From contig JBEKTD010000007.1 in assembly GCA_049516395.1 (NCBI GenBank), positions 47,853 through 111,852 of the forward strand: a stretch of DNA of 64,000 nt, read 5' to 3'. The notes beneath the pieces are model-generated. The model saw only the letters and a list, made by a program, of their open reading frames with translations, did no database searches and was not told the origin of the DNA. The stretch is from Sedimentisphaerales bacterium. GTDB taxonomy: Bacteria > Planctomycetota > Phycisphaerae > Sedimentisphaerales > Anaerobacaceae. A program made the translations under genes and the position numbers. Below, one piece after another: positions 9,066 through 27,600 of the stretch. Every line of letters starts with the position of its first letter. The first letter of the stretch is position 1.

Positions 9066-9072
9066 CAGGTAA

Positions 9073-9891: not shown

Positions 9892-9927
9892 TTCGTTGTC
9901 TCCTTTTCACTCAATCTAAGCGAACAT

Positions 9928-9965
9928 TGTTAAAACCGTGTTAGTAATCAGTTAATCTTTCGTTA
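9928..9965 (-). promoter_or_regulatory. candidate Pho box array upstream of pstS
   Basis: nGTTA units start at 9928 (TGTTA), 9939 (TGTTA), 9950 (AGTTA) and 9961 (CGTTA), with exact 11-bp phasing. They lie in the 87-bp porin-pstS spacer. Confidence 0.45.
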
Positions 9966-9978
9966 GAGCAAATCATCT

Positions 9979-11277
9979 TTAAAACTTGAACACCAGATCC
10001 GCCTGCAGTCGGCGATATTTATCGTTCGTGGTTATATTTTCATCGATGAAGTAGGTCAGGGCGGTCTGAAAATTCTTCGCTAACTGATAGGTGAAGTTAA
10101 ACCAGTGCCCCCTGGCATTTGTCCCGCCGCCATCAAAATCGGAATCGTTGAATTGGCCTACCACGGCATCGGACTGAACTTCGCGATAGTTATAGCCGAG
10201 TTGCCATGAGCCGGGGTCTTTGGCTTTGTTGAACGTCGCGCCGATAAGCCAGGCATTGTTATATGAACTGGGCGCATCCGTGTTATGAGCAACATCGCCA
10301 TACACTGCGACCGGATAATCCGCAATTTTAGTGCCGTATTCCACGAATCCCTCGACGATGTCGAAGCCGTATTTGTAATTTCCGGCGGCCGCCGTGTTGC
10401 CAAGGAAGTTGGAACTGCCTTTCCAGAGTTTGGTGAGGTCGTTCTGGTCTTTTAAGTTTCCGTATGAGTAAAAGCTCATGCCGCCCAGGACGTAACTTTT
10501 GTCCTCGAAGGTGTTTTTAAGATAACCTTGTATCTCCCAAAGCGATGCGGCAGCCGAAGGTGTTGTGTCGGGATTATCGGGATTTCCAACCCAGAATCCG
10601 CCTCCGTTGATATATGCCTTTAACGAATCGTTAATCGGCATTTCGTATTTGGCAGCCAGTCCTTCCGGATTCAAATCGTCGTCCCAGATTAACTGGTTGT
10701 CGCCGACACGGTAGAATGTCCTGGGCATTTTGCCGCCTATGAAGTCGAAGCTCGCTATGTCTTTTGGATGCCAGTCAAAGTATGCCTGGTCGAGCCAAAT
10801 CGGTTTTTTGCTGAAAGCATCCCCCTCGGTCTGGTTTGTAGAAGTAGGGTCGCCGTTTGACCCGCTGCCAAGCCGGAAACCGACGTCAACTTCATCATTT
10901 ATTTTGTCGTAAATTCCAATCCTAGCGCGAAGTCGGTTTCGTTCTATGCTGTCGCTTTCGCCCTTGCTCGACCATTTACCTTTGCTCTGTGAATCAATCC
11001 CTTCGTAGCGGTATCGCAAATCGCCGCTGATTTTCATGTTCTCTACCCATTTGATACTGTCCGGCAATGCTGTCTGCTTTTGCTCTACGGCCTTGTTGAC
11101 CTCCTCGGCGACAACCTTCTTCTGCTGCGCTTCCATCTGGTCTAACCTGGCCTGCATATCAGCTATCTGCTTTTTCATATCGCTGATTTCGTCGGCCCTG
11201 GCGCTGCAGGCGAAGACCAGGCCCAGCAGCAGACACCCACAAATCATCCTTAATTTATTCATTACTCGTACCTCCAC
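9979..11277 (-). CDS. outer-membrane porin-like beta-barrel with an N-terminal coiled coil (likely phosphate/anion porin)
   Basis: 432 aa with a signal peptide and a coiled coil (ISDMKKQIADMQARLDQMEAQQKK). Alternating beta-strand pattern, aromatic-rich, C-terminal ...ADLVFKF. It lies between phoR and pstS. Confidence 0.65.
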   Translation of the reverse strand: MEVRVMNKLRMICGCLLLGLVFACSARADEISDMKKQIADMQARLDQMEAQQKKVVAEEVNKAVEQKQTALPDSIKWVENMKISGDLRYRYEGIDSQSKGKWSSKGESDSIERNRLRARIGIYDKINDEVDVGFRLGSGSNGDPTSTNQTEGDAFSKKPIWLDQAYFDWHPKDIASFDFIGGKMPRTFYRVGDNQLIWDDDLNPEGLAAKYEMPINDSLKAYINGGGFWVGNPDNPDTTPSAAASLWEIQGYLKNTFEDKSYVLGGMSFYSYGNLKDQNDLTKLWKGSSNFLGNTAAAGNYKYGFDIVEGFVEYGTKIADYPVAVYGDVAHNTDAPSSYNNAWLIGATFNKAKDPGSWQLGYNYREVQSDAVVGQFNDSDFDGGGTNARGHWFNFTYQLAKNFQTALTYFIDENITTNDKYRRLQADLVFKF

Positions 11278-11369
11278 AAAACACTTTTCTATTACTTGAA
11301 CGCTGACCCGAGACCACCCCGGATAGCATCGTACCCGTTTAGGATATTATTTGAGCTCCGCTAAAGGCC

Positions 11370-11396
11370 TGTTAAATTGATGTTAGAATTGCGTTA
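11370..11396 (-). promoter_or_regulatory. candidate Pho box array upstream of the porin gene
   Basis: TGTTA at 11370, TGTTA at 11381 and CGTTA at 11392, with 11-bp phasing. Confidence 0.4.
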
Positions 11397-11432
11397 ATTA
11401 AGGGAGATTGTTGGAGTAAGTCGAGAAAATGT

Positions 11433-13253
11433 TTATCTGATAGGCAGGTGAATAGTGAAGGTGCTGCCCTGGCCGGGAGAGCTTTCGACCGTTACCGAGC
11501 CGCCATGCAAATTGGTGATGTGCTTGACTATCGCAAGACCAAGACCCGTTCCGCCGAGTTTCCTCGTGCGGGCCTTGTCAACAACATAAAACCGCTCGAA
11601 TATTCGTGAAAGATGGCTCTTTTCTATGCCGCAGCCGGAATCCTTCACCGCGATAATCACTTCCTTCTCGGCCTGCGGTGAGCTTGTCGAATCCGCTGCG
11701 CGTGCGCTTATCTGAATCGTGCTTTCAGCGGAACTGTATTTAATGGCGTTATCAACGAGATTCAAAACCGCCTGCTCAAGCAAAGTCGGATTTATCAATG
11801 CCTCCAAATCGTCGTCACAATTGATATCGACTTTGATTTTCTTGTCGCCCGCCTTCGGACCGGAAAGCTCAACTGCCGATTCCAGCACGGGTCTGATTTT
11901 CAAATGCTCCCTCGCAATCATTCTCGTCTGGCCGTCTTCTTCCAGACGGGACAAGCTAAGTAAATCCTCGATAATCGCCATCAGCCGGTCGGTATGACCA
12001 GCTATAATGTTGAGAAATCGCTGCGCCTGTTCGGGTTCGTTAATTGCCCCGTCCAAGAGTGTCTCAACAAAACCTTTGATGGAAGTAATCGGCGTCCTCA
12101 ACTCGTGAGAAACGTTGGCCACAAAGTCGCGCCTGATATTTTCCAGCCGCTGCATCCTCGTCATGTCGCTCAATACGATAACAGCCCCGCTTTTATTGCC
12201 CTGATGGTCGGTGAGGTATGTGCCCCTCGCCCGCAGCGAAACGGGCTGCTCTGCCGACAGAGTAATATCCTCTTCAGTTGGCGCAGAGGACATCAGGGTA
12301 TATCGCATAAATCGCTGGATATCCACGTTCCTGATTGCCTCTTCAATACTGTGCCCTGTAGCCGAGACGCTGTCTATCTCAAGAAGCTGCGTCGCCTTTT
12401 TATTGATGTTCACGACTCGTCCGTCCGAGTCCACAGCTATTACGCCTTCAGCCATACTGCTTAAAATCGCTTCAAGCTGGTTCTTCTGGTTTGTTATGGT
12501 TTCGATTGTCCGCTTTAGACGGTCAGCGGTTTCGTTAAGCGCCCCTGCAAGCTCGGCGAGTTCCTCAGAGTCCGGAACGGGAACCCTGTGGTCTAACTGT
12601 CCCGCGGCAAACCGCTTCGCGGCGTCTTTCATTTGTTCGATTGGCCGGGTTATTTTACGAGATACAACTAAAGTTACGCCGGCTGCACAAACCGCCGCCC
12701 CCACCATTCCCCAGATGATTTTTGTGTAAATATCATTTAGCGCCTTGTCAACAGCGATAACCGAAAGCGACCCGCGAACAACCGCCAGCGGTGAGCTTGT
12801 CGAATCCGTTATTGTTTGCTCCTGCTCTTTGAGAGACACAGCGATATACATCATATTTTTGCCAAGGGTGTCGCTGAATCGCACGCTTCTGCCGGTCCGC
12901 CCGTTCATCGCCTGCCTGAACTCAGGCCGGTCCGCGTGATTTTCCATATTGGCCGGCTGCTGGTCCGAATCGCCGACAACCCGGCCGTCAGGGAGTATCA
13001 TCGTCAGACGAATCCCGGCGGTTTGACCAAGCAATTTGCATAACTGGTCAACCTCGTCGAAATTTTTCTGGTTCACAGCAGGCAAAATCTGCCGGCCCGC
13101 AAGCTGAATCCTCGATTCGAGATTTTGTGCAATCTCATCATAATAAAACCAGCGGAACGAATAAGACGCATACCAGCTTAAAAGAACAAGCGCAAGGATA
13201 GTAATTATCAGGTAGGGAAGATAAAGCTGCCAAAGCAGACGCCTTTTCGCCAT
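11433..13253 (-). CDS. phoR: PhoR-like sensor histidine kinase (TM, HAMP, PAS, HisKA, HATPase)
   Basis: 606 aa with H-box FVANVSHELRTPITSIKGF, N-box LVDNAIKYS and G-boxes DSGCGI..GGTGLGLAIVKH. It is adjacent to phoB and the pst genes. Confidence 0.85.
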   Translation of the reverse strand: MAKRRLLWQLYLPYLIITILALVLLSWYASYSFRWFYYDEIAQNLESRIQLAGRQILPAVNQKNFDEVDQLCKLLGQTAGIRLTMILPDGRVVGDSDQQPANMENHADRPEFRQAMNGRTGRSVRFSDTLGKNMMYIAVSLKEQEQTITDSTSSPLAVVRGSLSVIAVDKALNDIYTKIIWGMVGAAVCAAGVTLVVSRKITRPIEQMKDAAKRFAAGQLDHRVPVPDSEELAELAGALNETADRLKRTIETITNQKNQLEAILSSMAEGVIAVDSDGRVVNINKKATQLLEIDSVSATGHSIEEAIRNVDIQRFMRYTLMSSAPTEEDITLSAEQPVSLRARGTYLTDHQGNKSGAVIVLSDMTRMQRLENIRRDFVANVSHELRTPITSIKGFVETLLDGAINEPEQAQRFLNIIAGHTDRLMAIIEDLLSLSRLEEDGQTRMIAREHLKIRPVLESAVELSGPKAGDKKIKVDINCDDDLEALINPTLLEQAVLNLVDNAIKYSSAESTIQISARAADSTSSPQAEKEVIIAVKDSGCGIEKSHLSRIFERFYVVDKARTRKLGGTGLGLAIVKHITNLHGGSVTVESSPGQGSTFTIHLPIR

Positions 13254-13256
13254 CCA

Positions 13257-13940
13257 TTAGTCCTTGAAACGATAGCCCACGCCTCTTACGGTCTCAATAT
13301 ATTTTCCGAACTGGCCGAGCTTGCGCCTTAAAGAAACAATCTGAACATCCACAGCCCGGTCGGTCACAACATAATTACTCCCGCGAATCGCGTCAACTAT
13401 ATTGTATCTGCTCAGCACTAATCCCGGCCTCTTCGCCAGCGTATAAAGAATCATAAACTCCGTAAAGGTCAGTTCAATCGGCTTGTTTTTGAGTTTCACC
13501 TCGTATCGGGCCGGGTCTATGGTCAAATCGTGAATCTTGACAGGCGTATTTTCCTGCTTTGCCGCTGTTGCCCTGTATAGAATCCGCCGAACCCTGGCGA
13601 TAAGGACCTTGGGGCTAAACGGCTTTGTAACATAATCATCCGCGCCTACCTCCAGGCCTGAAACAACATCTGACTCCTCACCTTTGGCGGTAAGCATTAT
13701 TATAGGGATAGAACTGGTTTTTGAATCGGCCTTAAGCTGCCTGCAAACCTCGATGCCGTCTATCCCCGGTAGCATACGGTCAAGCAGTATCGCGCTTGGC
13801 GGGTTGGCCTTCGCTTTTTTCAGTGCTTCTTCGCCGGTAATGGCTGTTTCAACCTTGAATCCTTCTTTGTTGAAGTTATACCGCACCAGTTCCAGCACAT
13901 CTTCTTCGTCATCTACAGCAAGTATGCTTCCTCTGACCAC
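13257..13940 (-). CDS. phoB: OmpR/PhoB-family response regulator
   Basis: 227 aa. The receiver domain has ILAVDDEED...LLDRMLPGIDG...MLTAKG, and the winged-helix output domain ends ...IETVRGVGYRFKD. Confidence 0.88.
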   Translation of the reverse strand: MVRGSILAVDDEEDVLELVRYNFNKEGFKVETAITGEEALKKAKANPPSAILLDRMLPGIDGIEVCRQLKADSKTSSIPIIMLTAKGEESDVVSGLEVGADDYVTKPFSPKVLIARVRRILYRATAAKQENTPVKIHDLTIDPARYEVKLKNKPIELTFTEFMILYTLAKRPGLVLSRYNIVDAIRGSNYVVTDRAVDVQIVSLRRKLGQFGKYIETVRGVGYRFKD

Positions 13941-14266: not shown

Positions 14267-14315
14267 TAAAAAGCAGCCATAAGCTCTTACGCAGGAAGGG
14301 GTTACGAGCAGGCGA

Positions 14316-14359
14316 CGGGCTTATGAATCCCATGCTCTAACCAACTGAGCTACACCGCC
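14316..14359 (-). pseudogene. tRNA 5' half (acceptor 5' strand, D-arm, anticodon arm with CAU anticodon); no T-arm or 3' acceptor strand
   Basis: The reverse complement reads GGCGGTG-TA-GCTC-AGTTGGTTA-GAGC-A-TGGGA-TTCATAA-GCCCG. The following sequence (TCGCCTGCTCGTAACCCC...) cannot form a T-arm, and no CACCGCC occurs before phoB. Confidence 0.55.
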
Positions 14360-14476: not shown

Positions 14477-15640
14477 TTACCGTAAATACGCGTCTGCTCC
14501 GCCGCTTTTGACAACTTTGTACTCCGGCCCAACGGTAATCAGGATGGCCTCGACGCCGTCCAGCGACTCAACAAGCGCAAGGCCCTTTTCAGCCCCCATT
14601 ACATTTACAGCCGTTGAAAGTGCATCCGTATCCACAGCATTTGCGGCAAGGATGGTGTCGCTGCTTAACTTGTTTGCCCCTGTCGCAGTGTTCGTATCAA
14701 TGATGTGACTATATTTCTTTCCGCCTATGGTTACAAATCGCCTGTAGTCGCCGCTTGTTGAAACCGCCATATCATTCACTTTCAAGACCATCAACACCTG
14801 TTCTGCGCCAATGGCGCCATTCGAGTCCGACGGGTTTGCCGCAACTGGGTTTTGCAGACCAACCCGCCAGGTGTCTTTGTCTGCCGGTTTGCCGAAGCAG
14901 CGTATATCGCCGCTCGCACAGACCATACCGCCAATGGCCCCCTCCCGCCGCATCACCTCAACGGCCTTATCGACCGCGTAACCTTTTGCTATACCGCCCA
15001 AATCCAGACGCATCCCTTTAACTGCAAACCGCACTGTTCGCTCATTCGCATCCAGTATCAGTTTTTCAAATCCGACGCGAGCTTTGGCGGTGGCAAGGGT
15101 ATTTTCGTCAGGCACGGTATTCGCCTCGCCCGCTTTATGCCATAGGTCCACCAAAGGCCCGACGGTAACATCAAACGCACCATTGGAAAGCCGGCTGAAC
15201 CTGACGCTTTTTTGAAGTATTTCAAAAAGTTCGGGGCTGACCTTGACGGGGTTTGTAAATGCCTCGCGGTTGACCCTGCTTAGCTCGGAGTCATTCTTGT
15301 AATCACTCATCATCGCATCGATTCGTTTGAGTTGTTCAAATCCCGCCTCGATGCAGCGTTTGCCCTGCCATTGGTGTTCTGTCACCGCCACTACTCGCAC
15401 CAATGTCCCCATCACCTCGCGGTAGCCGCCGTCGATTTCAACCGGCTGGCGCATTTTTTCCGCCACATAAAAATAAACGCCGGCTAAAAGGGCCACGGCG
15501 ACAACAATTTTTATCGCAACTTGTCTGCTGCTGTTCTCCAACTCTATCTCCAGAAAAACAAAATTCGGGTAACTAAAAGGTTTATTGGGAGTCCGTCTTT
15601 TTATAGAAATCGGCTTCGTGTTCCGACAGTTTGTTTTCAC
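14477..15640 (-). CDS. apbE: FAD:protein FMN transferase ApbE
   Basis: Motifs GAFDVTVGPLVDLW, LDLGGIAKGYAVD and VSTSGDYRRF. The N-terminus has a TM anchor. A likelier start is TTG 15541, preceded by GGAG, which removes the 59-nt overlap with the upstream ORF. Confidence 0.88.
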   Translation of the reverse strand: MKTNCRNTKPISIKRRTPNKPFSYPNFVFLEIELENSSRQVAIKIVVAVALLAGVYFYVAEKMRQPVEIDGGYREVMGTLVRVVAVTEHQWQGKRCIEAGFEQLKRIDAMMSDYKNDSELSRVNREAFTNPVKVSPELFEILQKSVRFSRLSNGAFDVTVGPLVDLWHKAGEANTVPDENTLATAKARVGFEKLILDANERTVRFAVKGMRLDLGGIAKGYAVDKAVEVMRREGAIGGMVCASGDIRCFGKPADKDTWRVGLQNPVAANPSDSNGAIGAEQVLMVLKVNDMAVSTSGDYRRFVTIGGKKYSHIIDTNTATGANKLSSDTILAANAVDTDALSTAVNVMGAEKGLALVESLDGVEAILITVGPEYKVVKSGGADAYLR

Positions 15641-18600
15641 GAATCATGTTTTTAATTTTCTGTGTATCGACGTTTCTGGGTTGTCCCGCCGAAGGCGATG
15701 CCGCAACGGCGGTCGAGGGAACCGGCAATTCCCTGATGAAGCTTTCGACAGACACAGAAGTAATACCAATAGCAATTACAAGCACCGCCGGGAGAAAATA
15801 GCGAGAGGCAAAACCGGCAGATGATTCAGCTACAACGGATTTTTTCTCATATCGGCATTTGTCGCAATAGATACAATCGAGCTTGTCATTGAAGCTCAAC
15901 CCGTATTCACAGTTGGCGTATCGCTTCGCAGGCAAAAACCGACTGAATATTGCGATTTTATTAAACAGCGACAAAAATGCCCCGGCAGGACACAGATACC
16001 GGCACCAGAAACGCGAATAGAAAAAAGAGCCGATAACCGCCACGGCTGCGATGAGCAGCAGGGGCCCGTTAAAATGCCTGAAACTGAAGACCCTAATCAA
16101 CGGGTCGATGGCAAGAGTATTATGATTTCGAGACAGGAAAAACGCAGCCACGAGAACAAAAAGAACGACGAATTTGACGAATCTTCCTTTTTGCATCTGC
16201 TCCCTTGACAGAATCGGCCTGAACCGGGCCGGCAGAACATAACCGATAAATTCCTGCAAGGCGCCGAAGGGGCACAGATACCCGCAATAGATGTTGCCAA
16301 AAACAATAGCCAGCAACGGCGCTGCGATTGCAAGAATAAATGCTCCCGTCGATACTGAAAGAGGGATAGCCAATGACAACAAAGAAGCAATCTGTTCGGT
16401 AGAAAACTGGGCGTTGAGAAAAATACCGCCGAGGAGAACGTTAAAACCGAGGACAAACAATCGTGTCCGCAAGCCGCCCCGATATATGACAAGCAGAGTG
16501 ATGAGAAAAGCAAAGACAAGATATATGCCTTGTGAATCGAGCAGCCCGTGAGCGGTCGTAGTCGTTTTTTGCTGAGCGTTTTGGCCGAGGATTTGAGTAG
16601 CGAAGGCGCTGCCTGACTGGGCGAGAGATTCGAGGACTGCTTTTGAACTGACGGTCGCGCCTGTGACAGTATCGACATTTGCGAATGGCTGAGGACTGAA
16701 AAGGGTGTGGTCTTTTAGCGAAGGCAGCCAGTTAGTGAGCATATCGAGATAAGAGGGAGTTTCATTCGAACTAATTATGTGAAAATCAAGGAGATTGCCT
16801 GCGGCATCGGTGCGAATGGCGATATTTATTTTGCCGCCGAATCCCTGGACATTCGGGGCAAGGTCAGCGGAACTAAAAATGAAACCCGCGAGTTTGTCGT
16901 TGGCGTCGTAGGTTTTAAAATAGGTCGCTGTCCTGACTGTATTGGGCAGGGCGATAGTTGCGGCTTCAAGTCGGAGCGAGCCGACCAAGACCTGAGCTTC
17001 GCGTAGCGGAAGCGCAGGAGTAAATCTGGCGCCTGCAGTAACGAGCAGATTTGAGCAAAGGATTAGCGATACAGCAATGCCAAACAGTGCATAACCTGCT
17101 GAACGAAAAATTGGTGATACGAAGAATTTCCCCGGACGGTCTATCCTCAACAAAGTTGCGGGCAGGTTGGCAAGGGTGAGTAATATGAACATCAGTATTG
17201 TAATCTTTGCGCCAAGTATGGGAATAAGAACAAGGGCGGCTAACAGCCCCCCTGCCGCCGCACCAATATGGTCGGCATATTCGAGCCGTACAGATGCCTG
17301 TGTGGTATTCAAACCGTTCACGGCCAAAAGATTGCCAATTATCGGGAAGTAAGAACCGGCGCACAAGCCGCAGACAATAAATGCGACTGCGAAACTGATA
17401 TGAGACCAGCCCGAAGCAGGCCAAAAGGCAACGGCTGCCAGAACAGCACAATGGACCAACAGGACCGTCATAAGAAGCGACTCAGAATTCCGCAAATATT
17501 TCCTTTGTAGAAGGCGATTGGCGATTGTTGCGCCTGCGGCGAGGCCAGCCATATACATCGAAGATATTGCGCCTATATGAAGATAGAGGGAACCGAAACG
17601 GGTCTGGTAGAGATACATCAAAACGATTACGACACCGATACCGACAGCACCCGTGGAGAAAATCAGAAATGTGAAGTCAAAGGTTGCCGGCCTGGCGGCA
17701 GCGGGTAAAGTCAGAATAAATATCAATCGCAAAATAACGTAAATGATAACTGGAACTAAAAATACCGGAAGGCCGGCAAGCAAAAGATGCTTGAAAAACA
17801 AAGTTACAGGCGCATCGGATTCTTTGGCCGCGAGCAATAGGGCGTAGAGATTGGCCAGCGGTCTCGAATCGCGATTGAGAAGATGCTCGGCGGGCAGGTC
17901 AACGGCGTTATATGCGTCGAATGCCTTGGCGGCTCGGTCGGGCAGGTAGATACTCAAAAGACCATTAGGCGGATATGAATTAGCAGCGTTTGGAATGGAG
18001 GCGAAACGTTCCCGCAGTATGCCGGGGTCGCCTGTAAGGTTGTTAGAGTCGGAGACGATAAACCAGGAGTTGTCGCCGGGCACAAGGGCAATATGAGAGA
18101 AAATCTGTTCGAGCGTAAGCTTTGTAGAAGCGCCGATAGTGGCAAGCTCAGTACCCATAATGTTTTCGCCGGCTGGAATACGAACAGCAAGTACGCCTGA
18201 AGAGCCGAGAGCGGTTTTCAACTGCTCATAAAACTCGATTGTAAAGTAACGATTCAGGATTGAACTTGTTGCGTCGGGAAGATTGATGATTACAAGGTCG
18301 AATCGTTCTTTTTGCCGGCTCAACAAAGCACGCGGGTCATCCGTAAAACTCTCAAATCGCTTATCAGAGATGCTCATTTGTCGCGGCACAAATTCCAGGA
18401 CACGACGGATATACTCGCTGTCAGGATTAGCCCAGACAACACTGTCAATTTGCGGAAGCTGCAGAAACTCACGACAAAGGGCGAGTCCCGAACCAATTAC
18501 GAGAACACGAGATGCCTTCAGATTCTGCGATAGCGTAAGAGCAACAATTCTTCCGGCGGAAGTCGGGTCGGGGACGGCCTCGACAACACTGCCTTCACGG

Positions 18601-19445
18601 ACGGCGACCCACTGGTTCTGGTAAAGGCCATAGAGGTATTCGGCCTGTGCGGTCTGAAAGGAGCCGGTAAGAGAATCCGCCGGGAGAAGGCGGGACCACT
18701 TTACGGTGCGCAAATAATGGGCAAGCGGTTTATCGACGCCGAACGCCGCTGCAAAACCAAGAATAAGAACCAGCAGAAAAACCGGCGGAAGAGTTTTCTT
18801 GCGCGAATGATGCGACACCACAAAAAAAGACGGCAGGACAGCAAGTGAAAGAATAAAAGCGAGAAGAAGAAAAATTTTAACGGAACTTATACCAAATGTC
18901 AGCAGCACCGTTGTGCCAAGACCGCCGATGAAGCTGCCAAGCGATTCGAGCAGGTAAACCCGCGAGACAGCAGGCGTGGTTTCGAGGGCGACCCAGCGAC
19001 AGGTTAGAGGGAAAAGTAAGCCGGTGATGAAGCTGACGGGGGCATTAACCAATGCGCTCAAAAGCAAGGCGGCAGAGATGGGCAAAAGCGTATAAGGGGC
19101 AATGCCCGCAAGCTGACGTATATGAATAATTAACAGCACCTGAAGAACAAAGGCGGGAATATAGCTCAGGTAGAGCAGTTCAATATTTGCAAGCAGGAAG
19201 TCGGTGAGACGTTTGCTTGCGTTGACCAGCATTGTGCCGATGGCAATCCATAGAAACCAGCAGGCAAAAAATATACCGATAGTGATATCGTTGCTTTCGA
19301 AAGAAGTAATGAACTCTCTGAAGACAAGTGTTTGAGCGGAGATTGAGAACAGGCCATAGGCAAATATCACGAAACCGCGGGTCACGCCGGCTGAAAACGC
19401 GGAATTACAAGTGGCACTAATTTCGGCGCGGCAAGGGGACATCAT
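15582..19445 (-). CDS. 1287-aa polytopic fusion: MFS-like TM block + spermidine-synthase-like fold + second TM block + FMN_bind domain + NapH/NosR-like 4Fe-4S membrane domain
   Basis: aa 300-470 read VLVIGSGLAL...FDLVIINLPD (SpeE-like). aa 840-945 read GFGGKINIAIRTD...VDTVTGATVSSKAV (FMN_bind with a flavinylation motif). aa 1050-1200 carry CGYLCPFG, CRYLCPAG and CIYCDKC. Confidence 0.8.
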   Translation of the reverse strand: MMSPCRAEISATCNSAFSAGVTRGFVIFAYGLFSISAQTLVFREFITSFESNDITIGIFFACWFLWIAIGTMLVNASKRLTDFLLANIELLYLSYIPAFVLQVLLIIHIRQLAGIAPYTLLPISAALLLSALVNAPVSFITGLLFPLTCRWVALETTPAVSRVYLLESLGSFIGGLGTTVLLTFGISSVKIFLLLAFILSLAVLPSFFVVSHHSRKKTLPPVFLLVLILGFAAAFGVDKPLAHYLRTVKWSRLLPADSLTGSFQTAQAEYLYGLYQNQWVAVREGSVVEAVPDPTSAGRIVALTLSQNLKASRVLVIGSGLALCREFLQLPQIDSVVWANPDSEYIRRVLEFVPRQMSISDKRFESFTDDPRALLSRQKERFDLVIINLPDATSSILNRYFTIEFYEQLKTALGSSGVLAVRIPAGENIMGTELATIGASTKLTLEQIFSHIALVPGDNSWFIVSDSNNLTGDPGILRERFASIPNAANSYPPNGLLSIYLPDRAAKAFDAYNAVDLPAEHLLNRDSRPLANLYALLLAAKESDAPVTLFFKHLLLAGLPVFLVPVIIYVILRLIFILTLPAAARPATFDFTFLIFSTGAVGIGVVIVLMYLYQTRFGSLYLHIGAISSMYMAGLAAGATIANRLLQRKYLRNSESLLMTVLLVHCAVLAAVAFWPASGWSHISFAVAFIVCGLCAGSYFPIIGNLLAVNGLNTTQASVRLEYADHIGAAAGGLLAALVLIPILGAKITILMFILLTLANLPATLLRIDRPGKFFVSPIFRSAGYALFGIAVSLILCSNLLVTAGARFTPALPLREAQVLVGSLRLEAATIALPNTVRTATYFKTYDANDKLAGFIFSSADLAPNVQGFGGKINIAIRTDAAGNLLDFHIISSNETPSYLDMLTNWLPSLKDHTLFSPQPFANVDTVTGATVSSKAVLESLAQSGSAFATQILGQNAQQKTTTTAHGLLDSQGIYLVFAFLITLLVIYRGGLRTRLFVLGFNVLLGGIFLNAQFSTEQIASLLSLAIPLSVSTGAFILAIAAPLLAIVFGNIYCGYLCPFGALQEFIGYVLPARFRPILSREQMQKGRFVKFVVLFVLVAAFFLSRNHNTLAIDPLIRVFSFRHFNGPLLLIAAVAVIGSFFYSRFWCRYLCPAGAFLSLFNKIAIFSRFLPAKRYANCEYGLSFNDKLDCIYCDKCRYEKKSVVAESSAGFASRYFLPAVLVIAIGITSVSVESFIRELPVPSTAVAASPSAGQPRNVDTQKIKNMIRENKLSEHEADFYKKTDSQ

Positions 19446-21082
19446 TATTTTTCACCGAAAACTTCGGCCTGGAATACAAGGAAGCTCGCGTCTTTTTTCC
19501 AGCCGTCCGGAGACAGACCTGCCTTGATGGATAAGTGCATCAATGTCTCTTCGAGGGTCCACTTCTGTTCCGGAGCAACCTGAGGCAAAAATAAGGCCGA
19601 ATAACCTGCTTTACTCAGAACAATACCATCCGTGCCGAGCCGGATTTGATTGTATGAGTCGATAGGTTGCGGCACCGTAAGAGCAGATATTTCAATTTTG
19701 ATACTGCTGAGCTCGCCTTTCGTAACAGGCGTAAATCTCCAGTCATTGACCGCGGCGTTAATTGCGTTGGCGATTACGGATTTATACAGCGGCTGGCGAG
19801 GAAATACGTCGCCGATGCAGCCCCTTAAGTCCTTGTTTATTGTCAATGTCACAAACGCAGCTCTGGAAATCTTCATCGCTTCGCTTATCGGAACATTCAA
19901 TTCTTCAGGGGTAGGGACATTTCCTTTTCGCAGATAAAAATCGATTGTTCTGCGAGCAAGCAGTAAAAGGTTGTTATGGTCTTCCTGCGTCAGTGCAGTA
20001 TCTGTTTTTGCTGGCTCGACCTTAGCTTGTTTTTGCCAGTCGCCGTGAAAAGCAACAGATAGATAACTGACGGAATTGGTAAAATCGCCTGTTAGCTCGC
20101 CGGATCTGGCGTACTTGAGCAATTCCGGCCTGGTTCCGGACGGAAGCATTGAAAGGAGTATCGCAATCGGCACCCGGCCGCAGATAGTCGCGCCTGTTCT
20201 ATCGCAATATTGGCTAAAGCCGGTGCTGTCCAGTTTTGAAATGTAATCATAAGCGCCCATATCGAGCTTTTTAAGCCCATCGGGGATATTCTGGTCAAAT
20301 GGGACATAGTCATAATTGGGGCCATAGTGAACGAAATCGGAACTTGCCACAACGAGGGTATTGCTATCAACCAGCGATTTCAGGATTGAGGCCACCTTTT
20401 GCACCGTTTGCGGAGAGCACTGGCCTGCGACAATGGGGACAAGTTTGAAATCGCCGAGGCGGTATTGCAGCAGAGGCAGTTGCATTAAGACGCTGTGCTC
20501 GGTCCTGTATGCCTGTGGAATGTCCTTAAAGAGCGGGGATTGTAAGAGTTTATTTATAAATTCAGTATCAAGCGGTATTTCACCAAGAGGGGTCTTGTAA
20601 TGAGTTACATCTCCCGGAACGCTGAGGACATCCAGCATAGGGACCTGATGCGATGGCCCAATGACAATGACTCGCTTGTATTTTGCTTTCGCGGCCTTAA
20701 CTCCAAAAGCGGCTGTTTGGCCCGAGTAAGCATAGCCGGCGTGAGGACTTATAATGGCAATTGTATCATCGGCAGGTTGCACCTGGGCTTTTTGAAAGAA
20801 GCCCTCGATTTGTTTTGCCAGCACATTGGGGTCATTTGGATGCCAGCCCATCTGCCCCATCGGCGAAGTCAGAACGGACCTGGCAATTTGCGGTTGTTTC
20901 TGGGCTTCATTTTCGGCAGCTTTGGTAGATTGCGTGATTTCCAGAACATATGGCCCAAAAGGAATTTGTGGCAGATCTGTTAGATATGGTTCAAACAGAT
21001 AAGCAACGCCAAGGAGTAAAAGACCCAGAACAACACTCCATACGAAATTACGCACCTGGTTTGTATTGCCGCTATCAGACAT
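19445..21082 (-). CDS. Memo-like (AmmeMemoRadiSam protein B) fused to AMMECR1 (protein A), with an N-terminal signal anchor
   Basis: ISPHAGYAYSG and DFVHYGPNY match the Memo/dioxygenase-like part. AAFVTLTINKDLRGCIG matches AMMECR1. The track starts at GTG 21091, but ATG 21082 follows a GGAG and the upstream stop. A TM segment (FVWSVVLGLLLLGVAYLF) is present. Confidence 0.85.
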   Translation of the reverse strand: MSDSGNTNQVRNFVWSVVLGLLLLGVAYLFEPYLTDLPQIPFGPYVLEITQSTKAAENEAQKQPQIARSVLTSPMGQMGWHPNDPNVLAKQIEGFFQKAQVQPADDTIAIISPHAGYAYSGQTAAFGVKAAKAKYKRVIVIGPSHQVPMLDVLSVPGDVTHYKTPLGEIPLDTEFINKLLQSPLFKDIPQAYRTEHSVLMQLPLLQYRLGDFKLVPIVAGQCSPQTVQKVASILKSLVDSNTLVVASSDFVHYGPNYDYVPFDQNIPDGLKKLDMGAYDYISKLDSTGFSQYCDRTGATICGRVPIAILLSMLPSGTRPELLKYARSGELTGDFTNSVSYLSVAFHGDWQKQAKVEPAKTDTALTQEDHNNLLLLARRTIDFYLRKGNVPTPEELNVPISEAMKISRAAFVTLTINKDLRGCIGDVFPRQPLYKSVIANAINAAVNDWRFTPVTKGELSSIKIEISALTVPQPIDSYNQIRLGTDGIVLSKAGYSALFLPQVAPEQKWTLEETLMHLSIKAGLSPDGWKKDASFLVFQAEVFGEK

Positions 21083-21083
21083 A

Positions 21084-21266
21084 TTATCCACTCCATTTAG
21101 ATTGTGAATTAATGTTGGCGATGGTTTTCAACCGACCAGGGTATTTTGACAACGGCTTCGCCCACAGGAATCTCCGTGGCAAAACGGTTTTAGCCAACAC
21201 CCAGCCGGCAACTAAGACCGTTGACCCTGCCGCTAAAATATTTTGCAGAAAAGTTCGCCGTGTCAT
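21084..21266 (-). CDS. 60-aa protein consisting of a twin-arginine (Tat) signal peptide plus a ~35-aa basic tail
   Basis: MTRRTFLQNILAAGSTVLVAGWVLA-KTVLPRRFLWAKPLSKYPGRLKTIANINSQSKWSG. Its ATG overlaps the radical SAM stop (ATGA at 21266-21263). Its stop lies 1 nt before the Memo-AMMECR1 ATG. Confidence 0.55.
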   Translation of the reverse strand: MTRRTFLQNILAAGSTVLVAGWVLAKTVLPRRFLWAKPLSKYPGRLKTIANINSQSKWSG

Positions 21267-22255
21267 TTCCACACCCCGTATATTTTTTTGCCGCAATCCG
21301 GACAGCAGCCATCTTTCAGACTGTTTGTCATGACAACATATTCCTGCCGTTCGATTAACATTTTATGGCAGCCGGGGCAATATGTATTCTCGCCCTGGCG
21401 GCTGCGGATATTGCCTATGTAAACATAATACAGGCCTTCTTCAAGTGCAATCTGGCGGGCTACGTCAAGTGTGTCCAACGGTGTCGGCGGCAGATGCTGC
21501 ATCTTGTACTGCGGGAAAAAACGCGAGAAATGCAAAGGTATATCGCTGCCGAGATTTGTACTGACCCACCGAGCCAGGCGTCTGATATCATCTGGCTTGT
21601 CATTGAGCGTCGGAATAAGAAGATTTATCACCTCAACGTGCACACCCATAGCAACAGCATCTATAAGGCATTGCTGAACAGGCCCAACAGTTCCCGAACA
21701 AAACTTTCGGTAAAAATCATCACTCATACCTTTGAGGTCAACACGGGCAGCATCGGTAACTTCGAGCAGGCGCTTCCATGGTTTGGGATTACAATAAGCG
21801 GCCGTAACCAGCACATTACGCACACCGGCCTGCTTGGCCAGCCGGGAGGTATCATAAGCATATTCGTAATAAGCAATCGGGTCGGTATATGTATATGCGA
21901 TTGATGGCGACTTATATTGCCGGGCGTATGCGACGAGCTGTTCGGGCGGAACAAGCGAGGCGGTCGAATCTTCGGGATTGGCCTGTGAGATTTCCCAGTT
22001 TTGACAGTTTAGGCAATGCAGATTGCAGCCAATCGTTGCAAGCGAAAGAATTGGCGTGCCGGGTAGAAAATGGAATAACGGCTTTTTCTCCACCGGGTCT
22101 ATATTAATAGAACACGGATAGCCATAGACGACGGTGCGCAAGACGCCATCTATGTTGATTCTGACCCGGCAGTCGCCGCTCTGACCGGGTGCAATGATAC
22201 ATTCCCTCGGACACAACTCGCACTGGACCTTTTGACTCATAAAACGCCTTCCCAA
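21263..22255 (-). CDS. AmmeMemoRadiSam-system radical SAM enzyme
   Basis: 330 aa with the CNLHCLNC (CxxxCxxC) cluster motif, an N-terminal CELCPREC and C-terminal CPGC...CPDC cysteine pairs. It is adjacent to the Memo/AMMECR1 genes. Confidence 0.85.
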   Translation of the reverse strand: MGRRFMSQKVQCELCPRECIIAPGQSGDCRVRINIDGVLRTVVYGYPCSINIDPVEKKPLFHFLPGTPILSLATIGCNLHCLNCQNWEISQANPEDSTASLVPPEQLVAYARQYKSPSIAYTYTDPIAYYEYAYDTSRLAKQAGVRNVLVTAAYCNPKPWKRLLEVTDAARVDLKGMSDDFYRKFCSGTVGPVQQCLIDAVAMGVHVEVINLLIPTLNDKPDDIRRLARWVSTNLGSDIPLHFSRFFPQYKMQHLPPTPLDTLDVARQIALEEGLYYVYIGNIRSRQGENTYCPGCHKMLIERQEYVVMTNSLKDGCCPDCGKKIYGVWK

Positions 22256-22502: not shown

Positions 22503-23159
22503 ATGAAACGGTACGGTTATTTGTTGGTGGTAGCGGTCGTGGGAATATCGATAGTGGGTTGCACATCTCCGTCAGGTCGGACGGACTACACGGCTTCCGG
22601 AGCTTTGGCCGGCGGAGCAACAGGTGCAATCATCGGCAGCACGGCTCGGCAGCCGGGCGCCCCACTGGTCGGCGCAGCTGTGGGCGCAGTGGTCGGCGGC
22701 CTCATAGGGCACGGAATGGACCAGGAACAGGAGGCGCAGTTGAGGGCGCAAGCCCCGCAGACACTGCAACGGGTTGAACAGAGCCAGCCGTTGACGGTGA
22801 TGGACGTCAAAGCGATGGTGAAGGCCGGAATCAGCGACGATCTCATCATTAGCCAGATTCGCAACTCCCGCACGGTCTATCACCTCAACACAGCGGACAT
22901 TATTGATCTCAAAAACTCGGGTGTCAGTGAAAAGATTATTGACTTCATGATCAACACGCCGACCCAGGTTCAGTCCGCTCAAGTGGCTGGAGTGGTAGGG
23001 ACTGCGCCACCGCCACCGTTAGTCGAGCAGGTTGTTGTGGCTCCGGGTCCGGACTACGTCTGGGTGGGAGGCGCGTGGGTCTGGTTCGGGGACCGTTGGG
23101 TTTGGCACCACGGCTATTGGCACAGACCGCTGCACCCGTACGGGTACGGGCACCGATAG
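22503..23159 (+). CDS. lipoprotein with a glycine-zipper segment and a C-terminal Trp/Tyr-rich repeat
   Basis: 218 aa with lipobox IVGC. Glycine zipper GALAGGATGAIIGS...GAAVGAVVGGLIGHG. C-terminus YVWVGGAWVWFGDRWVWHHGYWHRP. Confidence 0.7.
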   Translation: MKRYGYLLVVAVVGISIVGCTSPSGRTDYTASGALAGGATGAIIGSTARQPGAPLVGAAVGAVVGGLIGHGMDQEQEAQLRAQAPQTLQRVEQSQPLTVMDVKAMVKAGISDDLIISQIRNSRTVYHLNTADIIDLKNSGVSEKIIDFMINTPTQVQSAQVAGVVGTAPPPPLVEQVVVAPGPDYVWVGGAWVWFGDRWVWHHGYWHRPLHPYGYGHR

Positions 23160-24607: not shown

Positions 24608-27600
24608 TCAACTTTGTTGACAACTGGTTTCAAGCCAATGGTCGGCCATAACATCAAGGTCTTTCAAATTAACGGTACCATCCCGACTTCCCAGTGGTTC
24701 GAGGTCGGCTCCTTCACAGTAGTTATTCGAAGCAGAGCAATCTGTTTCCAACCAATGACTCGCAAGGACCGCCAAATCCTCCAGATTTACTGTCCCGTTT
24801 TTATTAAGGTCGGCGCCGCCGCATTTTGGGGGAAGAGCGCCGGTCCAGCATATCGACAAAGGCATTGCGAGGTCGCCTGCGCCCAAAATGCATACTGCAT
24901 TCACATCGCTTACTCCATAGGGCACATAGGGCACTTTCACAAGGCATGGGTCGTAGAAAGGTAAAGGTATAACATTGCTTTGGTAATTAGGGTAATTAGT
25001 ACTATAAGGATCCTGTGGCAGCAACGAATTAAAATTGAACCCAGTTACCCAGAGTGAGTTTGTGATTGGGTCTTCGGTGATACTCGTAACGTGCTGCATT
25101 CCAGACACCGTTATAGTCCGGACAGGCGCGAGGGTTGCGGTGGAAAGCCCATAAATCACCGTTGTGTCGTAATCAGCGTTGTTACTTAACGAAGATGCGA
25201 GATAAAGCATGTTCGTAGAACTTGAGACACACATACCCACAGGAGCCGGCAAAAACAGCGGGCTGTTTGGGTCACCTAAATCAAGACGACAAATAGTGGC
25301 ACCGTTGGGATCAAACTTCCACAGTATATCGCTCCCGTTCATGGCATTGGCATTAGTCACATAGACATTTCCAGCCGCGTCAAGTCCAATATCTCGGAGG
25401 TTGTTGCGATAATCAAGCTGGTTATCAGCAGTAGAAATAGGCTTCTCATCAAACAGCTTGACCACGTGGTAAGGAGGAGTCGAGTTGGAGTCCAACTGCA
25501 GCTTGGCTGCAGCGGCATAACAAGGGTCGTTTCCTGCAGGAACAACCACTACGGGCACAACGTACACATAGTTGTTTGCGTCGAAGGCAGCGTCCCAAAC
25601 AGGTCTTCCAAAGGCATTACTGCCTGTTCCCTGAATACCCACATAAACCCTGGCTCGTTGACCATAACGTGGTTCGCTGTTAACGTCGGTATGGCCCGGA
25701 GGTACGATTTGTGTACCGGTATCAAGCCGAGATATTCCACTCAGTGAATTAATCTGGTACAAGTCACTGCCCATACCTCGCACCACCGCGATATTACATC
25801 TCTCAGACGCGGGAATGAGACATCGAGCATAGTTATAACTGCTGTCGAATACATAAAGCCGGTCTTTCAATCTTGTCTGGGGGGCGGTAGTGCCCATCTT
25901 GCCGGATATCAACAAGTCGCTAAAATCTGAAAGATTGAGAAGATCGGCAGAATGAGAGAAATTAAGAAGTCCGTCTTTGCTCCCTAATTCGCTCGTCGCA
26001 GGACCGGGGCCGCCTAAAGGTACCCCCCCACAAAAACTCCCAGGTTCGCCGGTATTCAGTATCCAGTCCCAGGATAACATATCATATTTATCCGCATAGC
26101 CATCATTGCTGAAAACTCCTTCCGCACATGTTGGTAGGTCAACGCTTCCGGTCCCGGCCACAACTACTAAGAGGTCCAACACATCGACGGAATTAGACCA
26201 ATTCAAGTCAAGACAGTAGCCGTCCCAACCGCACCAAATTCCAGCATCCCACTTAGTAATAATAACACTGAGATCTTCCGATACTTCCGAACTCATAAGT
26301 CGCATTTCTTTATCGTAACTATATGCAAGAAGTCCGCTGCCGGATACAGGTTCGTTCATTTCGAGTTCAACCCACGTTCCTTTTGAAAGGTCAAGTCCGC
26401 CTGTCGAATGGAACATGTCGAAATTGCCGAATCGGTTGCTGTCCGCCGAGCCCGGCCGAGGCCACGGCGGATTTAAAACACGACCAACCTCAATATAGTG
26501 CTCGGCACGGCATGGGTCATTATGGTCAAGCATCTCAGGCACATCCGACAGGTAAACCACTATCTGGGCACAGGGGTCTGTAGTGCTGAACAGGTAATTG
26601 AACTGAATTCGTATTCTATCTTCAACAGCCGGCGCATACGCGCCCTTTGCTCGGGCGAAAGTCATCTGACCATTTACATCTTTCAGGTTATGCATCGCCA
26701 TAAATCCGTTGGGGTCAGGGGCCTGTCCAGTTACCAGTTCGACGTGTATCATGGTGTTATTGGGGTCCGCAGAATTGTTGTTGCTCACACGGCTTTGGAA
26801 CTCCGCAGCGCTGTCGAAATTTATCTTATCCAGTGAAAATCCCAGTAACGCCCCTTTCTTGATTGAATTCACGTCACCGTAAAGATTCGTATAATAAAGA
26901 TGCTCAAAACCAACGTTTAAAACGCTGCCGACGTTGCAAAAATCAAAAACAAGGTTTTTCACGTACAGGACCTCAGGGTTTCCATTGCCGTTGTTAAAAC
27001 GGTTCACAAGGGTTACTTTTGCGCCGGGTTTCACCTCCAATTGCTCCAGCGTCCAGGAATTTGTATCGAACGCAGGCATATTGTTGCCAAGCTGACAGGC
27101 CAATACATTTGGGTCATTAAAATCGCAGGGAGGCGATACAAAATTTCGACCTCGAAGTTCTAGGAAGCCATCGCTCTCTGTAATAGTAACATAGATGCGG
27201 TTGTTAGCAATAGTCCCCGTGAATGTGCAGGGGTCAACATCCATATAGCGGTCGCCGTCCGCATAAATATCGAGGTTTGTCGCCGTGGCGGAGCCCTCTA
27301 CCTGGAATTTGCCGAAATATCCCCCCGCCTGCCGGCTGATATTCACAGTCGCGTGTTTCAATTGTGCATTGTCTTTTACTTTGAGCAGGCCGTCACATTG
27401 GATTGTGCCTTTTATATTCGGGTCATTGGGGTCATTAAGGTCAACAATCGCGTTGGAATCAATTATCATTTCCCCGCCAAGACAAATATTCACACCTCCT
27501 ATCCCCTGAATTCGTGAACTTCCTCCAAAATATATAACGTTGTTGCTGCAGTACATACCAATATCACCGCCGTATGGTGCCGAATTGCCGCTGAACGTGC

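Follow-up and report, generated by a model that had tools for sequence, protein, structure and literature searches.

Linkage of an AmmeMemoRadiSam variant with predicted export signals to a putatively flavinylated membrane redox protein in Sedimentisphaerales and other bacteria

AMMECR1 and Memo are ancient and widespread protein families with links to human disease, namely the AMME contiguous-gene syndrome and the part played by MEMO1 in cell migration and cancer; to our knowledge no reaction has been ascribed to either of them, and their function has stayed elusive for two decades. A locus in a Sedimentisphaerales bacterium raises the question of where in the cell these proteins work, and with which partners. 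It lies in a stretch of 64,000 nucleotides (hereafter the window; contig JBEKTD010000007.1, assembly GCA_049516395.1), in which five minus-strand genes follow each other from position 22240 to position 14477: those of a radical S-adenosylmethionine (SAM) enzyme, a 60-residue peptide with a twin-arginine (RR) motif, a Memo-AMMECR1 fusion, a large membrane protein of 1287 residues, and ApbE (Table 1). They are joined by the combined stop and start signals ATGA, TAA-t-ATG and TAATG and then by a gap of 40 nt, and reading the open reading frames (ORFs) and every junction anew returned the same five overlapping or abutting genes that a preliminary description of this DNA had claimed. In line with its domain assignments, the TIGRFAM profile hidden Markov models (HMMs) of the radical SAM, Memo and AMMECR1 families (the AmmeMemoRadiSam trio) and the Pfam models FMN_bind, ApbE, Fer4_5 and Spermine_synth all scored above their curated cut-offs. 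A consensus scan, which is weak evidence, saw no terminator-like site in the gene junctions, and Rfam gave no match in the window, so that no riboswitch or leader seems to precede the operon.

This gene arrangement recurs well beyond the genome in which it was noticed. A scan of one genome per GTDB species, with an alignment of 17 homologues of the large protein as query, returned 79 loci, which were searched with the window proteins; a locus was called linked when the trio lay within 8 kb of the large-protein homologue, and 57 species-representative loci were counted. The trio was found near the homologue in 43 of them. Where identity to the large protein was at least 45%, it adjoined in 25 of 28 loci, all three exceptions being cut at a contig end on the relevant side, and among distant loci (23-33% identity) it lay within 8 kb in 18 of 29. 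By our estimate, chance alone would bring a single-copy trio within 8 kb of a given gene in far fewer than 1% of genomes. Accordingly, the association is real, and the co-occurrence of trio and giant fusion, for which the preliminary description had proposed a neighbourhood survey, goes beyond chance juxtaposition.

The large protein is 100% identical to a protein of a metagenome-assembled genome of Sedimentisphaerales (Phycisphaerae, Planctomycetota) and has more than 120 full-length homologues of at least 52% identity, of which all source-named ones come from Sedimentisphaerales, Phycisphaerae or Planctomycetota. Three homologue loci (54-65% identity) share the order radical SAM enzyme, 59-60-residue ORF, Memo-AMMECR1, large protein, with flanks wholly different from those of the window and no adjoining ApbE. 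The distant loci are hosted by Bacteriovoracaceae, Desulfomonilaceae and other Thermodesulfobacteriota, a Myxococcota-type bin, Planctomycetota outside Phycisphaerae, and Nitrospirota, as well as by sulfur-oxidising Gammaproteobacteria (Ectothiorhodospiraceae, Chromatiaceae, Sedimenticola, Thiohalocapsa and the Escarpia tubeworm symbiont), so that the linkage extends over Planctomycetota, the phylum of the window, and at least five other phyla, including Bdellovibrionota. Gene order varies: the trio stands upstream on the same strand in Phycisphaerae and at loci L031, L032, L036, L048 and L070, downstream of the large protein in Gammaproteobacteria and L066, and divergent from it in L033, L034, L049 and L062. 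Clustering the ORFs of 26 diverse loci revealed no further conserved partner, the only common families being the large protein, Memo-AMMECR1 and the radical SAM enzyme. Other recurrent neighbour families were either antisense artefacts in GC-rich DNA or lineage-specific, and among the latter a SPFH/zinc-ribbon protein, a kinase, a rhodanese, an ABC transporter and a chemoreceptor were dismissed as partners.

The large protein is also found in pieces. In Nitrospirota it is split into adjoining genes of ∼700 residues (membrane core and spermidine-synthase-like domain) and ∼405 residues (FMN_bind and NapH-like parts), and at L057, L059, L060 and L061 the FMN_bind and NapH-like half stands alone beside the trio. 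At L085 the trio is followed by a 777-residue homologue of the N-terminal half and then by a separate, secreted FMN_bind protein of 218 residues without a NapH part. The constant theme of these variants is a predicted extracytoplasmic FMN-binding domain beside a Memo-family protein with a predicted export signal. With its recurrence across phyla, in three gene orders and in fused as well as split forms, the adjacency upholds the suggestion that the trio is wired to a membrane electron conduit.

Two reduced arrangements were recorded. In an unclassified bacterium (L055, 7908-10143) a Memo-only gene with an export signal comes directly after the gene for a 423-residue FMN_bind and NapH-like protein, with neither AMMECR1 nor radical SAM genes found nearby, a minimal pairing of FMN module and Memo. 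The complete genome of Thiohalocapsa sp. PB-PSB1 (L054, 11784-13669) has the large protein, a 61-codon ORF and Memo-AMMECR1, and no radical SAM gene within 8 kb; the latter gene thus seems to be detachable from the module.

On which side of the membrane the trio meets this protein is indicated by the Memo-AMMECR1 fusion. As one polypeptide, it scores 213.6 bits with TIGR04336 (cut-off 26) and 160.4 bits with TIGR04335 (cut-off 99), and it keeps all of the MEMO1 residues His, His, Asp, His and Cys together with the RGCIG and DxRF motifs of AMMECR1. A short polar region and an 18-residue hydrophobic stretch without obvious cleavage site form its N-terminus, which bears out the signal-anchored fusion first described. 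When the reading frames were followed upstream, an export signal (signal peptide, lipobox or anchor) appeared on all 43 linked Memo(-AMMECR1) proteins, 41 of which pass the hydropathy threshold while two were called by eye. Clear lipoboxes, at least eight in all, are present at L031, L036, L048, L057, L059, L061, L066 and L070, and the Memo-AMMECR1 proteins of Gammaproteobacteria carry AxA-type signal peptides. Memo-AMMECR1 is thus predicted to be extracytoplasmic, and the periplasm-facing process raised earlier as a possibility is strengthened.

Exported Memo-AMMECR1 proteins, as far as their N-termini predict export, are a large group. A search of 1.84 billion 50%-identity representatives (E≤1e-30) gave 1990 relatives; judged by their N-termini, the best 150 fusions comprise 92 with a signal-like N-terminus (25 with a lipobox), 39 with none as called and 19 unclear cases. 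Three sampled "signal-less" fusions were considered as cytoplasmic controls and rejected. At two of them an in-frame signal lies upstream of the called start, a hydrophobic one at L088 (∼7850-8001; protein P0163) and the lipobox LSGGC at L089 (∼7300-7376; protein P0145). The called starts of both proteins are probably too late, and exported forms would therefore be under-counted in protein databases. The third, L083, has a neighbouring radical SAM gene that is not TIGR04337-like and gives no tblastn match with the radical SAM enzyme of the window.

The large protein has ∼21 transmembrane (TM) helices. An AlphaFold2 (AF2) model of residues 1-1200, built on a 59-sequence alignment, begins with seven helices; a globular domain (264-500) separates these from eight further ones, which lead to the FMN_bind domain and then to five helices bracketing both CxxxCP motifs. 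The FMN_bind domain with its DTVTGATVSS motif and the two CxxxCP motifs, which had been picked out before, match Pfam above cut-off; T928, G929, A930, T931 and both CxxxCP motifs are invariant in 59 homologues. Across the phyla the flavinylation motif is kept in most, being SRAT in Nitrospirota, and the CxxxCP motifs and the Cys4 cluster are kept in all, with single substitutions in one CxxxCP of L032 and L064. The iron-sulphur (Fe-S) module also gives partial NosR and NapH profile matches, and our search found no solved structure for the NapH-like part.

The remainder of the protein is unusual. MFS_1, the major facilitator superfamily (MFS) profile, matches the core of the window protein (TM1-7 spliced to TM9-14) weakly, at 12.4 bits (gathering 33.4, E=0.073), and exceeds gathering in the homologues P0055 (39.8 bits), P0068 (35.5 bits) and P0103 (33.6 bits), over helices 9-14, i.e. 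the C-lobe, at profile positions 156-346. The 50 Foldseek matches listed for the AF2 model all fall on the spermidine-synthase-like (SpeE-like) domain and include no fold match for the membrane core; 1uir, 3anx and 3o4f align over ∼270 columns with TM-scores (target) of 0.57-0.66. In this domain the first catalytic Asp of the D-S-x-D-P motif is replaced by Asn388 according to the HMM alignment, and by Asn, Thr or Leu in other phyla, and none of the speE equivalog models comes anywhere near its cut-off. Outside Phycisphaerae, conservation is better in the acidic and DGR motifs as well as in the glycine-rich loop; within them, the GENIMGTE loop is invariant. The membrane core looks like an MFS transporter with a helix-domain-helix hairpin in its central loop and a NosR-like module appended, which would make the polytopic fusion a compound of MFS-like core, predicted periplasmic SpeE-like domain and NosR-like module.

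We predict a topology with the N-terminus inside, the SpeE-like domain, FMN_bind domain and C-terminal tail outside, and the CxxxCP motifs and Cys4 cluster inside. In an alternating topology model, Lys and Arg of the short loops number on average 12.6 "in" versus 0.2 "out" in 17 homologues, and 13-22 "in" versus 0-4 "out" in 13 proteins from all phyla; the result agrees with the established topology of NosR and NapH. The tail, kept in Phycisphaerae, L048 and L070, follows the same logic at L085, where it stands directly behind a secreted FMN_bind domain with a cleavable-looking signal and should thus be outside, independently of loop charges. Its consensus, QPRDVDLQRIRTMIxQxKLSDxEAEFYKKxE, recurs at the end of that stand-alone protein (L085, 8971-9627). 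The tail motif EA[DE]FY[KR] (EA[DE]FYKK) also resembles EADFYRP of the gammaproteobacterial RR peptides, whose large proteins have no tail, and may be a common docking motif; the resemblance itself was set aside, as the peptide alignment places EADFYRP in the common C-terminal block of the peptides instead.

The peptide gene, too, appears to belong to the module. When the gap separating radical SAM and Memo genes was read in six frames at 23 loci and all loci were then searched by pattern, an RR ORF of 39-80 codons emerged in essentially every trio locus and in every phylum examined, its start overlapping the radical SAM stop by 4 nt (ATGA) in most loci of several phyla. The peptide of the window begins with MTRRTFL and continues with a hydrophobic stretch of 18-20 residues; FLWAKP and KYPG occur in its basic tail, with SKWSG at the C-terminus. 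An n-region [ST]RRxF[LI] and a following hydrophobic stretch of ∼18 residues are kept in 34 aligned peptides. Tails end in the block [KV]P[LF]xxx[DE]hxxx[HS]x[WLYF][SAI]G-COOH in Planctomycetota, Bdellovibrionota, delta-type lineages and Gammaproteobacteria, and in Nitrospirota and Desulfomonilaceae the peptides are of a short form ending KKAMFW[KR]. Those of Phycisphaerae have 8-12 Lys or Arg in tails of 35-41 residues; gammaproteobacterial peptides have a strongly basic N-region and a neutral or acidic tail, from which we predict that the N-terminus is inside and the tail outside. No conserved Cys is present in the peptide alignment, and no curated family covers the peptide beyond models of the twin-arginine translocation (Tat) signal. 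The early call of a 60-residue Tat-signal peptide stands in that the twin-arginine n-region is present and conserved in every phylum: MTRRTFLQ fits the Tat consensus, and the window peptide scores 14.9 bits with TIGR01409, just below the cut-off of 16.7, while its counterpart at L038 reaches 17.6 bits. Judged by this conservation, the RR peptide is a conserved component rather than an incidental ORF, and it is predicted to carry a Tat-type signal.

The radical SAM enzyme is an ordinary member of its family (TIGR04337, 366 bits, cut-off 220, model positions 10-333 of 349, with a Pfam Radical_SAM match), bearing the motif CNLHCLNC, with a Cys-rich motif at the N-terminus and a Cys4 ribbon at the C-terminus. 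No export signal is seen in its sequence, and it is thus predicted to be cytoplasmic. Its nearest solved structure is, weakly, the activase of pyruvate formate-lyase (PFL), and we found no solved structure of an AmmeMemoRadiSam radical SAM enzyme. Domain searches detected on it neither an RRE/PqqD nor a SPASM-type recognition domain, such as would mark an enzyme of ribosomally synthesised peptides or peptide-derived cofactors.

NosR is thought to pass electrons to N2O reductase, and PceC likewise to reductive dehalogenases. The large protein resembles NosR (with NosX/ApbE) and PceC in an FMN_bind domain with an ApbE-type Thr motif that is predicted to lie in the periplasm behind an anchor helix, in a polytopic part with two CxxxCP motifs and further Cys clusters predicted to be cytoplasmic, in the ApbE encoded alongside in the window, and in the presumed carriage of electrons across the membrane to a periplasmic metalloenzyme. 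It differs from NosR in that NF046105 matches with 51.8 bits only (cut-off 1000; positions 487-622 of 680), in that an MFS-like and SpeE-like region of 15 helices precedes the module in the fusion, in having a single Cx11CxxCxxC cluster instead of the C-terminal ferredoxin domain of NosR, and in its partner, Memo-AMMECR1. No nos or rdh genes lie near the module in the window, and no nos genes in the neighbourhoods examined. NapH-like proteins that begin with an FMN domain form an electron-transfer module of wide distribution, for the most part with unknown partners, and 2465 "NapH-like" flavinylation-associated clusters have been described, again mostly with unknown partners (Meheust et al., 2021; PMC8238504). 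The window has the features of this class, i.e. an FMN_bind domain with the [S/T]GA[S/T] motif, a PF12801-type CxxxCP protein and ApbE in the cluster, but here a partner can be named, and elsewhere the cluster is usually without ApbE. Memo, AMMECR1, radical SAM enzymes and spermidine synthase are not mentioned in the text or the supplements examined of that survey (PMC8238504).

On the side of the trio, all three families (TIGR04335, TIGR04336, TIGR04337) are above cut-off, co-located and with catalytic motifs kept, as in published AmmeMemoRadiSam systems, from which this variant differs by the export signals of Memo-AMMECR1 and by the Tat-type peptide and membrane redox protein as constant partners. 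The Memo-AMMECR1 fusion has been noted before, with a proposed cytoplasmic role on RNA bases (Balaji and Aravind, 2007; PMC2034487). In the literature searched, AmmeMemoRadiSam is encountered in incidental annotation mentions, and AMMECR1 together with radical SAM in papers of the Aravind group only. Nucleotide bases or isoprenoids are reportedly further substrates proposed, in the abstract of a 2019 study by Burroughs and colleagues. We found no published link of AMMECR1 or Memo to flavinylation, NosR-like proteins or the periplasm in a search that did not extend to this last work, a survey of Memo contexts. Membrane polyamine aminopropyltransferases of the PRK03612 type likewise have an N-terminal polytopic region followed by a full SpeE fold with an N-terminal beta-hairpin domain; unlike them, the large protein scores 51.7 bits (cut-off 472), has the first DSxDP Asp replaced in all phyla, and carries the SpeE-like domain between TM7 and TM8, predicted to be periplasmic. 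Anaerobic sulfatase-maturating enzymes (anSME) with their sulfatases, and QhpD/QhpG acting on the gamma subunit of quinohemoprotein amine dehydrogenase (QHNDH), offer an analogy only, in which a cytoplasmic radical SAM step on a precursor precedes export and, for QHNDH, a flavoprotein-dependent periplasmic step follows it; sequence kinship is limited to the radical SAM core, without a SPASM domain here. The finding appears to be a new combination of two known kinds of system.

We propose, with a probability of roughly 60%, that this module is an outward-facing AmmeMemoRadiSam variant supplied with electrons through a flavinylated conduit. ApbE, which flavinylates extracytosolic FMN_bind domains (PMC8238504), would attach flavin mononucleotide (FMN) covalently to Thr931 outside the cytoplasm, and the chain of Fe-S clusters and FMN would move electrons across the membrane, between the cytoplasmic or quinol pool and the periplasm, as has been proposed for NosR, PceC and other NapH-like systems (PMC8238504). 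The exported Memo-AMMECR1, with its predicted catalytic residues all kept, would be the client at the periplasmic end. The radical SAM step would take place in the cytoplasm ahead of export. Its target would be either an exported component still in precursor form, namely the RR peptide or the preprotein of Memo-AMMECR1, or else a small molecule, which would then exit through the MFS-like core. With the Memo and AMMECR1 domains outside the cytoplasm, an RNA or nucleotide substrate would be unlikely.

Several observations weigh against this proposal. Five distant loci with complete 8-kb flanks (L035, L056, L063, L064, L072) have no trio, and at L084 and L086 a secreted Memo-AMMECR1 stands alone, without radical SAM or membrane partner. 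An adjoining ApbE is confined to L004 and L028, both ∼90% identical to the window, with a weak ApbE-like match upstream in L046; the search covered flanks of 8 kb, where most loci have none, and flavinylation elsewhere would thus depend on an ApbE encoded farther away. The anticipated co-occurrence of ApbE accordingly fails outside near relatives, and of the "five-gene operon" four genes recur across phyla: judged by these neighbourhoods, the conserved unit is the set of radical SAM enzyme, RR peptide, Memo-AMMECR1 and large membrane protein. Of the two possible starts of ApbE in the window, in-frame TTG 15541 with GGAG ahead, 40 nt past the stop of the large protein, is more probably used than GTG 15640, which overlaps that ORF. 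Signals and topology were called by hydropathy, the positive-inside rule and manual reading, the confidence of the AF2 model is moderate (predicted local distance difference test, pLDDT, 67.7; predicted TM-score, pTM, 0.57), and nearly all loci come from metagenome-assembled genomes. Furthermore, it is not obvious how a SAM-fold domain in the periplasm would be supplied with its cofactor, cooperation of a cytoplasmic radical SAM enzyme with periplasmic partners would require an export step, and electrons could run in either direction.

Going one step further, Memo and AMMECR1 might act on an extracytoplasmic substrate other than nucleic acid, in a trans-membrane assembly line for an envelope cofactor or modification, an idea we put forward as doubtful. 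In its first part, the cytoplasmic radical SAM enzyme would modify either the peptide, to be exported by Tat and tethered to the membrane, or a metabolite that is expelled by way of the MFS-like core; in its second, the periplasmic SAM-fold domain, Memo and AMMECR1 would finish the product with electrons from the covalent FMN.

The alternative that survives best concerns the role of the peptide, and it refines the proposal of an outward-facing, electron-supplied variant rather than excluding it. We regard it as possible, though rather less than probable, that the RR peptide itself is the substrate: the radical SAM enzyme would modify it in the cytoplasm, Tat would export it on account of this modification or of its strong basicity, and it would be finished in the periplasm by Memo, AMMECR1 and the SpeE-like domain with electrons from FMN, to give a membrane-tethered modified peptide or a peptide-derived cofactor. 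The position of the peptide gene behind the radical SAM gene in every phylum, usually with the 4-nt ATGA overlap, argues for this, as do the Tat consensus [ST]RRxF[LI] combined with a common C-terminal block (...[HS]x[WLYF][SAI]G or AMFW[KR]), the Phycisphaerae tails, which would be hard to export through Sec with their 8-12 Lys or Arg, and the fact that the peptide was not found beside L083, the sole clearly signal-less fusion sampled. Cytoplasmic radical SAM modification with periplasmic finishing has precedents in the QHNDH gamma subunit, pyrroloquinoline quinone (PQQ) and mycofactocin, and human MEMO1 is said, from work of Qiu and colleagues in 2008, to bind a Tyr-containing peptide in its active-site cleft. 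On the other hand, the ordinary TIGR04337 architecture includes no added domain for peptide recognition, the peptide has no Cys, and its tail no single residue invariant across all phyla, and the window peptide falls below the Tat-signal cut-off. We also know of no such peptide in archaeal and other cytoplasmic AmmeMemoRadiSam systems.

Alternatively, the target of the radical SAM enzyme could be the unfolded Memo-AMMECR1 precursor, modified before Sec or lipoprotein export, for example at the Cys of RGCIG, in which case the RR peptide would do no more than contribute a small structural subunit to the membrane complex. One and the same radical SAM function would then cover cytoplasmic and exported variants alike, the enzyme is PFL-activase-like, i.e. 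protein-acting, and anSME similarly treat periplasmic sulfatases in the cytoplasm before export. The AMMECR1 Cys is conserved and has been proposed as a radical acceptor (PMC2034487). Yet glycyl-radical activases act on folded substrates, and the Tat consensus of the peptide and the coupling of its start to the radical SAM stop are left unexplained, so that we consider such a maturation unlikely.

Electrons could also run to the other side, the Fe-S/FMN chain reducing the cluster of the cytoplasmic radical SAM enzyme while the RR peptide, tail inside, tethers this enzyme to the membrane protein. In favour of this, radical SAM enzymes depend on a reductant of low potential, the CxxxCP and Cys4 clusters are predicted to face the cytoplasm, and by the positive-inside rule alone the very basic Phycisphaerae tail would prefer the cytoplasm. 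But secreted Memo or trio proteins accompany the FMN module even where a radical SAM gene (L055) or the NapH part (L085) is missing, and gammaproteobacterial peptides predict the opposite orientation; for these reasons, and with a conserved Tat consensus and a periplasmic FMN domain that would have no role, we judge this wiring very unlikely. That the large protein and ApbE are a generic NosR-like respiratory module for another enzyme, placed beside an unrelated trio by chance or synteny, is highly improbable: five distant homologues have no trio nearby and NapH-like modules do pair with many different enzymes (PMC8238504), but the adjacency is seen at 43 of 57 loci of six or more phyla, under three gene orders, with start codons that overlap stop codons and with otherwise unrelated flanks, features of the partners vary together, as with the RR peptide and the export signals on 43 of 43 Memo proteins, and no other candidate redox enzyme is conserved in the neighbourhoods examined.

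If an outward-facing, electron-supplied variant is what these loci encode, it bears on the families as a whole. Standing proposals place AMMECR1 and Memo in the cytoplasm, on RNA or nucleotides; the exported subclass suggests work outside it, restricts the chemistry to a redox-dependent reaction whose substrate is accessible there, and names partners that can be tested. A partner enzyme would thereby be assigned to a sizeable group of function-unknown "NapH-like" flavinylated systems, and placement of a SAM-fold domain in the periplasm is suggested. Should the assembly line hold true, its product, derived from a peptide or a metabolite, would be an envelope cofactor or modification of a new class, and the line would include the first periplasmic domain with a spermidine-synthase fold.

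Table 1. Genes, domains and motifs of the operon, with positions in the 64,000-nt window.
Feature	Position	Strand	Remarks
Radical SAM gene	21263..22240	-	325 aa; ATG at 22240, TGA ends at 21263
60-aa twin-arginine peptide ORF	21084..21266	-	ATG overlaps radical SAM stop as ATGA (21266-21263); TAA 21086-21084
Memo-AMMECR1 gene	19445..21082	-	545 aa; ATG one base past peptide TAA, GGAG ahead
Signal-anchor segment	20993..21046	-	Memo-AMMECR1 residues 13-30, FVWSVVLGLLLLGVAYLF
Memo domain	20054..20845	-	Residues 80-343; PF01875 E=1.2e-53; aligns to human MEMO1 structures 3bcz, 7kq8
AMMECR1 domain	19457..19960	-	Residues 375-542; PF01871 E=5.8e-49; aligns to 1zq7, 1vaj
Large membrane fusion gene	15582..19445	-	1287 aa; ATG shares A19445 with Memo-AMMECR1 TAA (TAATG); stop 15582-15584
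TM1-TM7, MFS-like N-lobe and extra helix leading outwards	18738..19388	-	Residues 20-236; AF2 helices, positive-inside pattern
Spermidine-synthase-like domain, predicted periplasmic	17769..18737	-	Residues 237-559; PF01564 31.8 bits (cut-off 22.9)
TM8-TM15: return helix, MFS-like C-lobe, FMN-domain anchor helix	17025..17768	-	Residues 560-807; AF2 helices
FMN_bind domain, predicted periplasmic	16536..17024	-	Residues 808-970; PF04205 36.9 bits (cut-off 22); weak RnfG-type matches
Thr931 codon in DTVTGATVSS, predicted covalent FMN site for ApbE	16653..16655	-	Motif conservation
NapH/NosR-like Fe-S module, 5 TM helices	15810..16535	-	Residues 971-1212; Fer4_5 x2 62.8 bits (cut-off 22)
CxxxCP motifs	16269-16286 and 15987-16004	-	Predicted cytoplasmic side
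Cx11CxxCxxC cluster (C1179/C1191/C1194/C1197)	15855-15911	-	Predicted cytoplasmic side
Last TM helix and predicted periplasmic C-terminal tail	15585..15809	-	Tail ends QPRNVDTQKIKNMIRENKLSEHEADFYKKTDSQ
ApbE gene	14477..15541	-	N-terminal signal anchor; PF02424 284.7 bits (cut-off 25.6)

Downstream of the operon, ∼120 nt past the ApbE stop, a tRNA-like fragment (14310-14359, minus strand) has intact acceptor and D arms and no T arm. It scores 20.8 bits with the Rfam tRNA model (gathering 29), and ARAGORN finds no tRNA in the whole window; recombination may have left the fragment as a scar where the lineage-specific ApbE gene ends. Beyond it, at 8067-13940 on the minus strand, lies what appears by eye from the translations to be a phosphate-limitation block, with PstC-like, PstS-like and porin-like ORFs, a PhoR-like histidine kinase and a PhoB-like response regulator, which is not conserved beside the module elsewhere. 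On the other side of the operon, a second ORF of exactly 1287 codons (24608-28471, minus strand) is unrelated to the membrane fusion, the equal length being a coincidence; its product is secreted and has many GGGMEN/NSA-type (pectate-lyase-like) repeats and two dockerin-like C-terminal repeats. The operon shares a promoter region of 260 nt with a divergent gene (22503-23159, plus strand) for a 218-residue lipoprotein, which has a glycine-zipper region and a Trp/Tyr/His-rich C-terminus (WVGGAWVWFGDRWVWHHGYWHRPLHPYGYGH) and was not seen beside the module in L001-L003.

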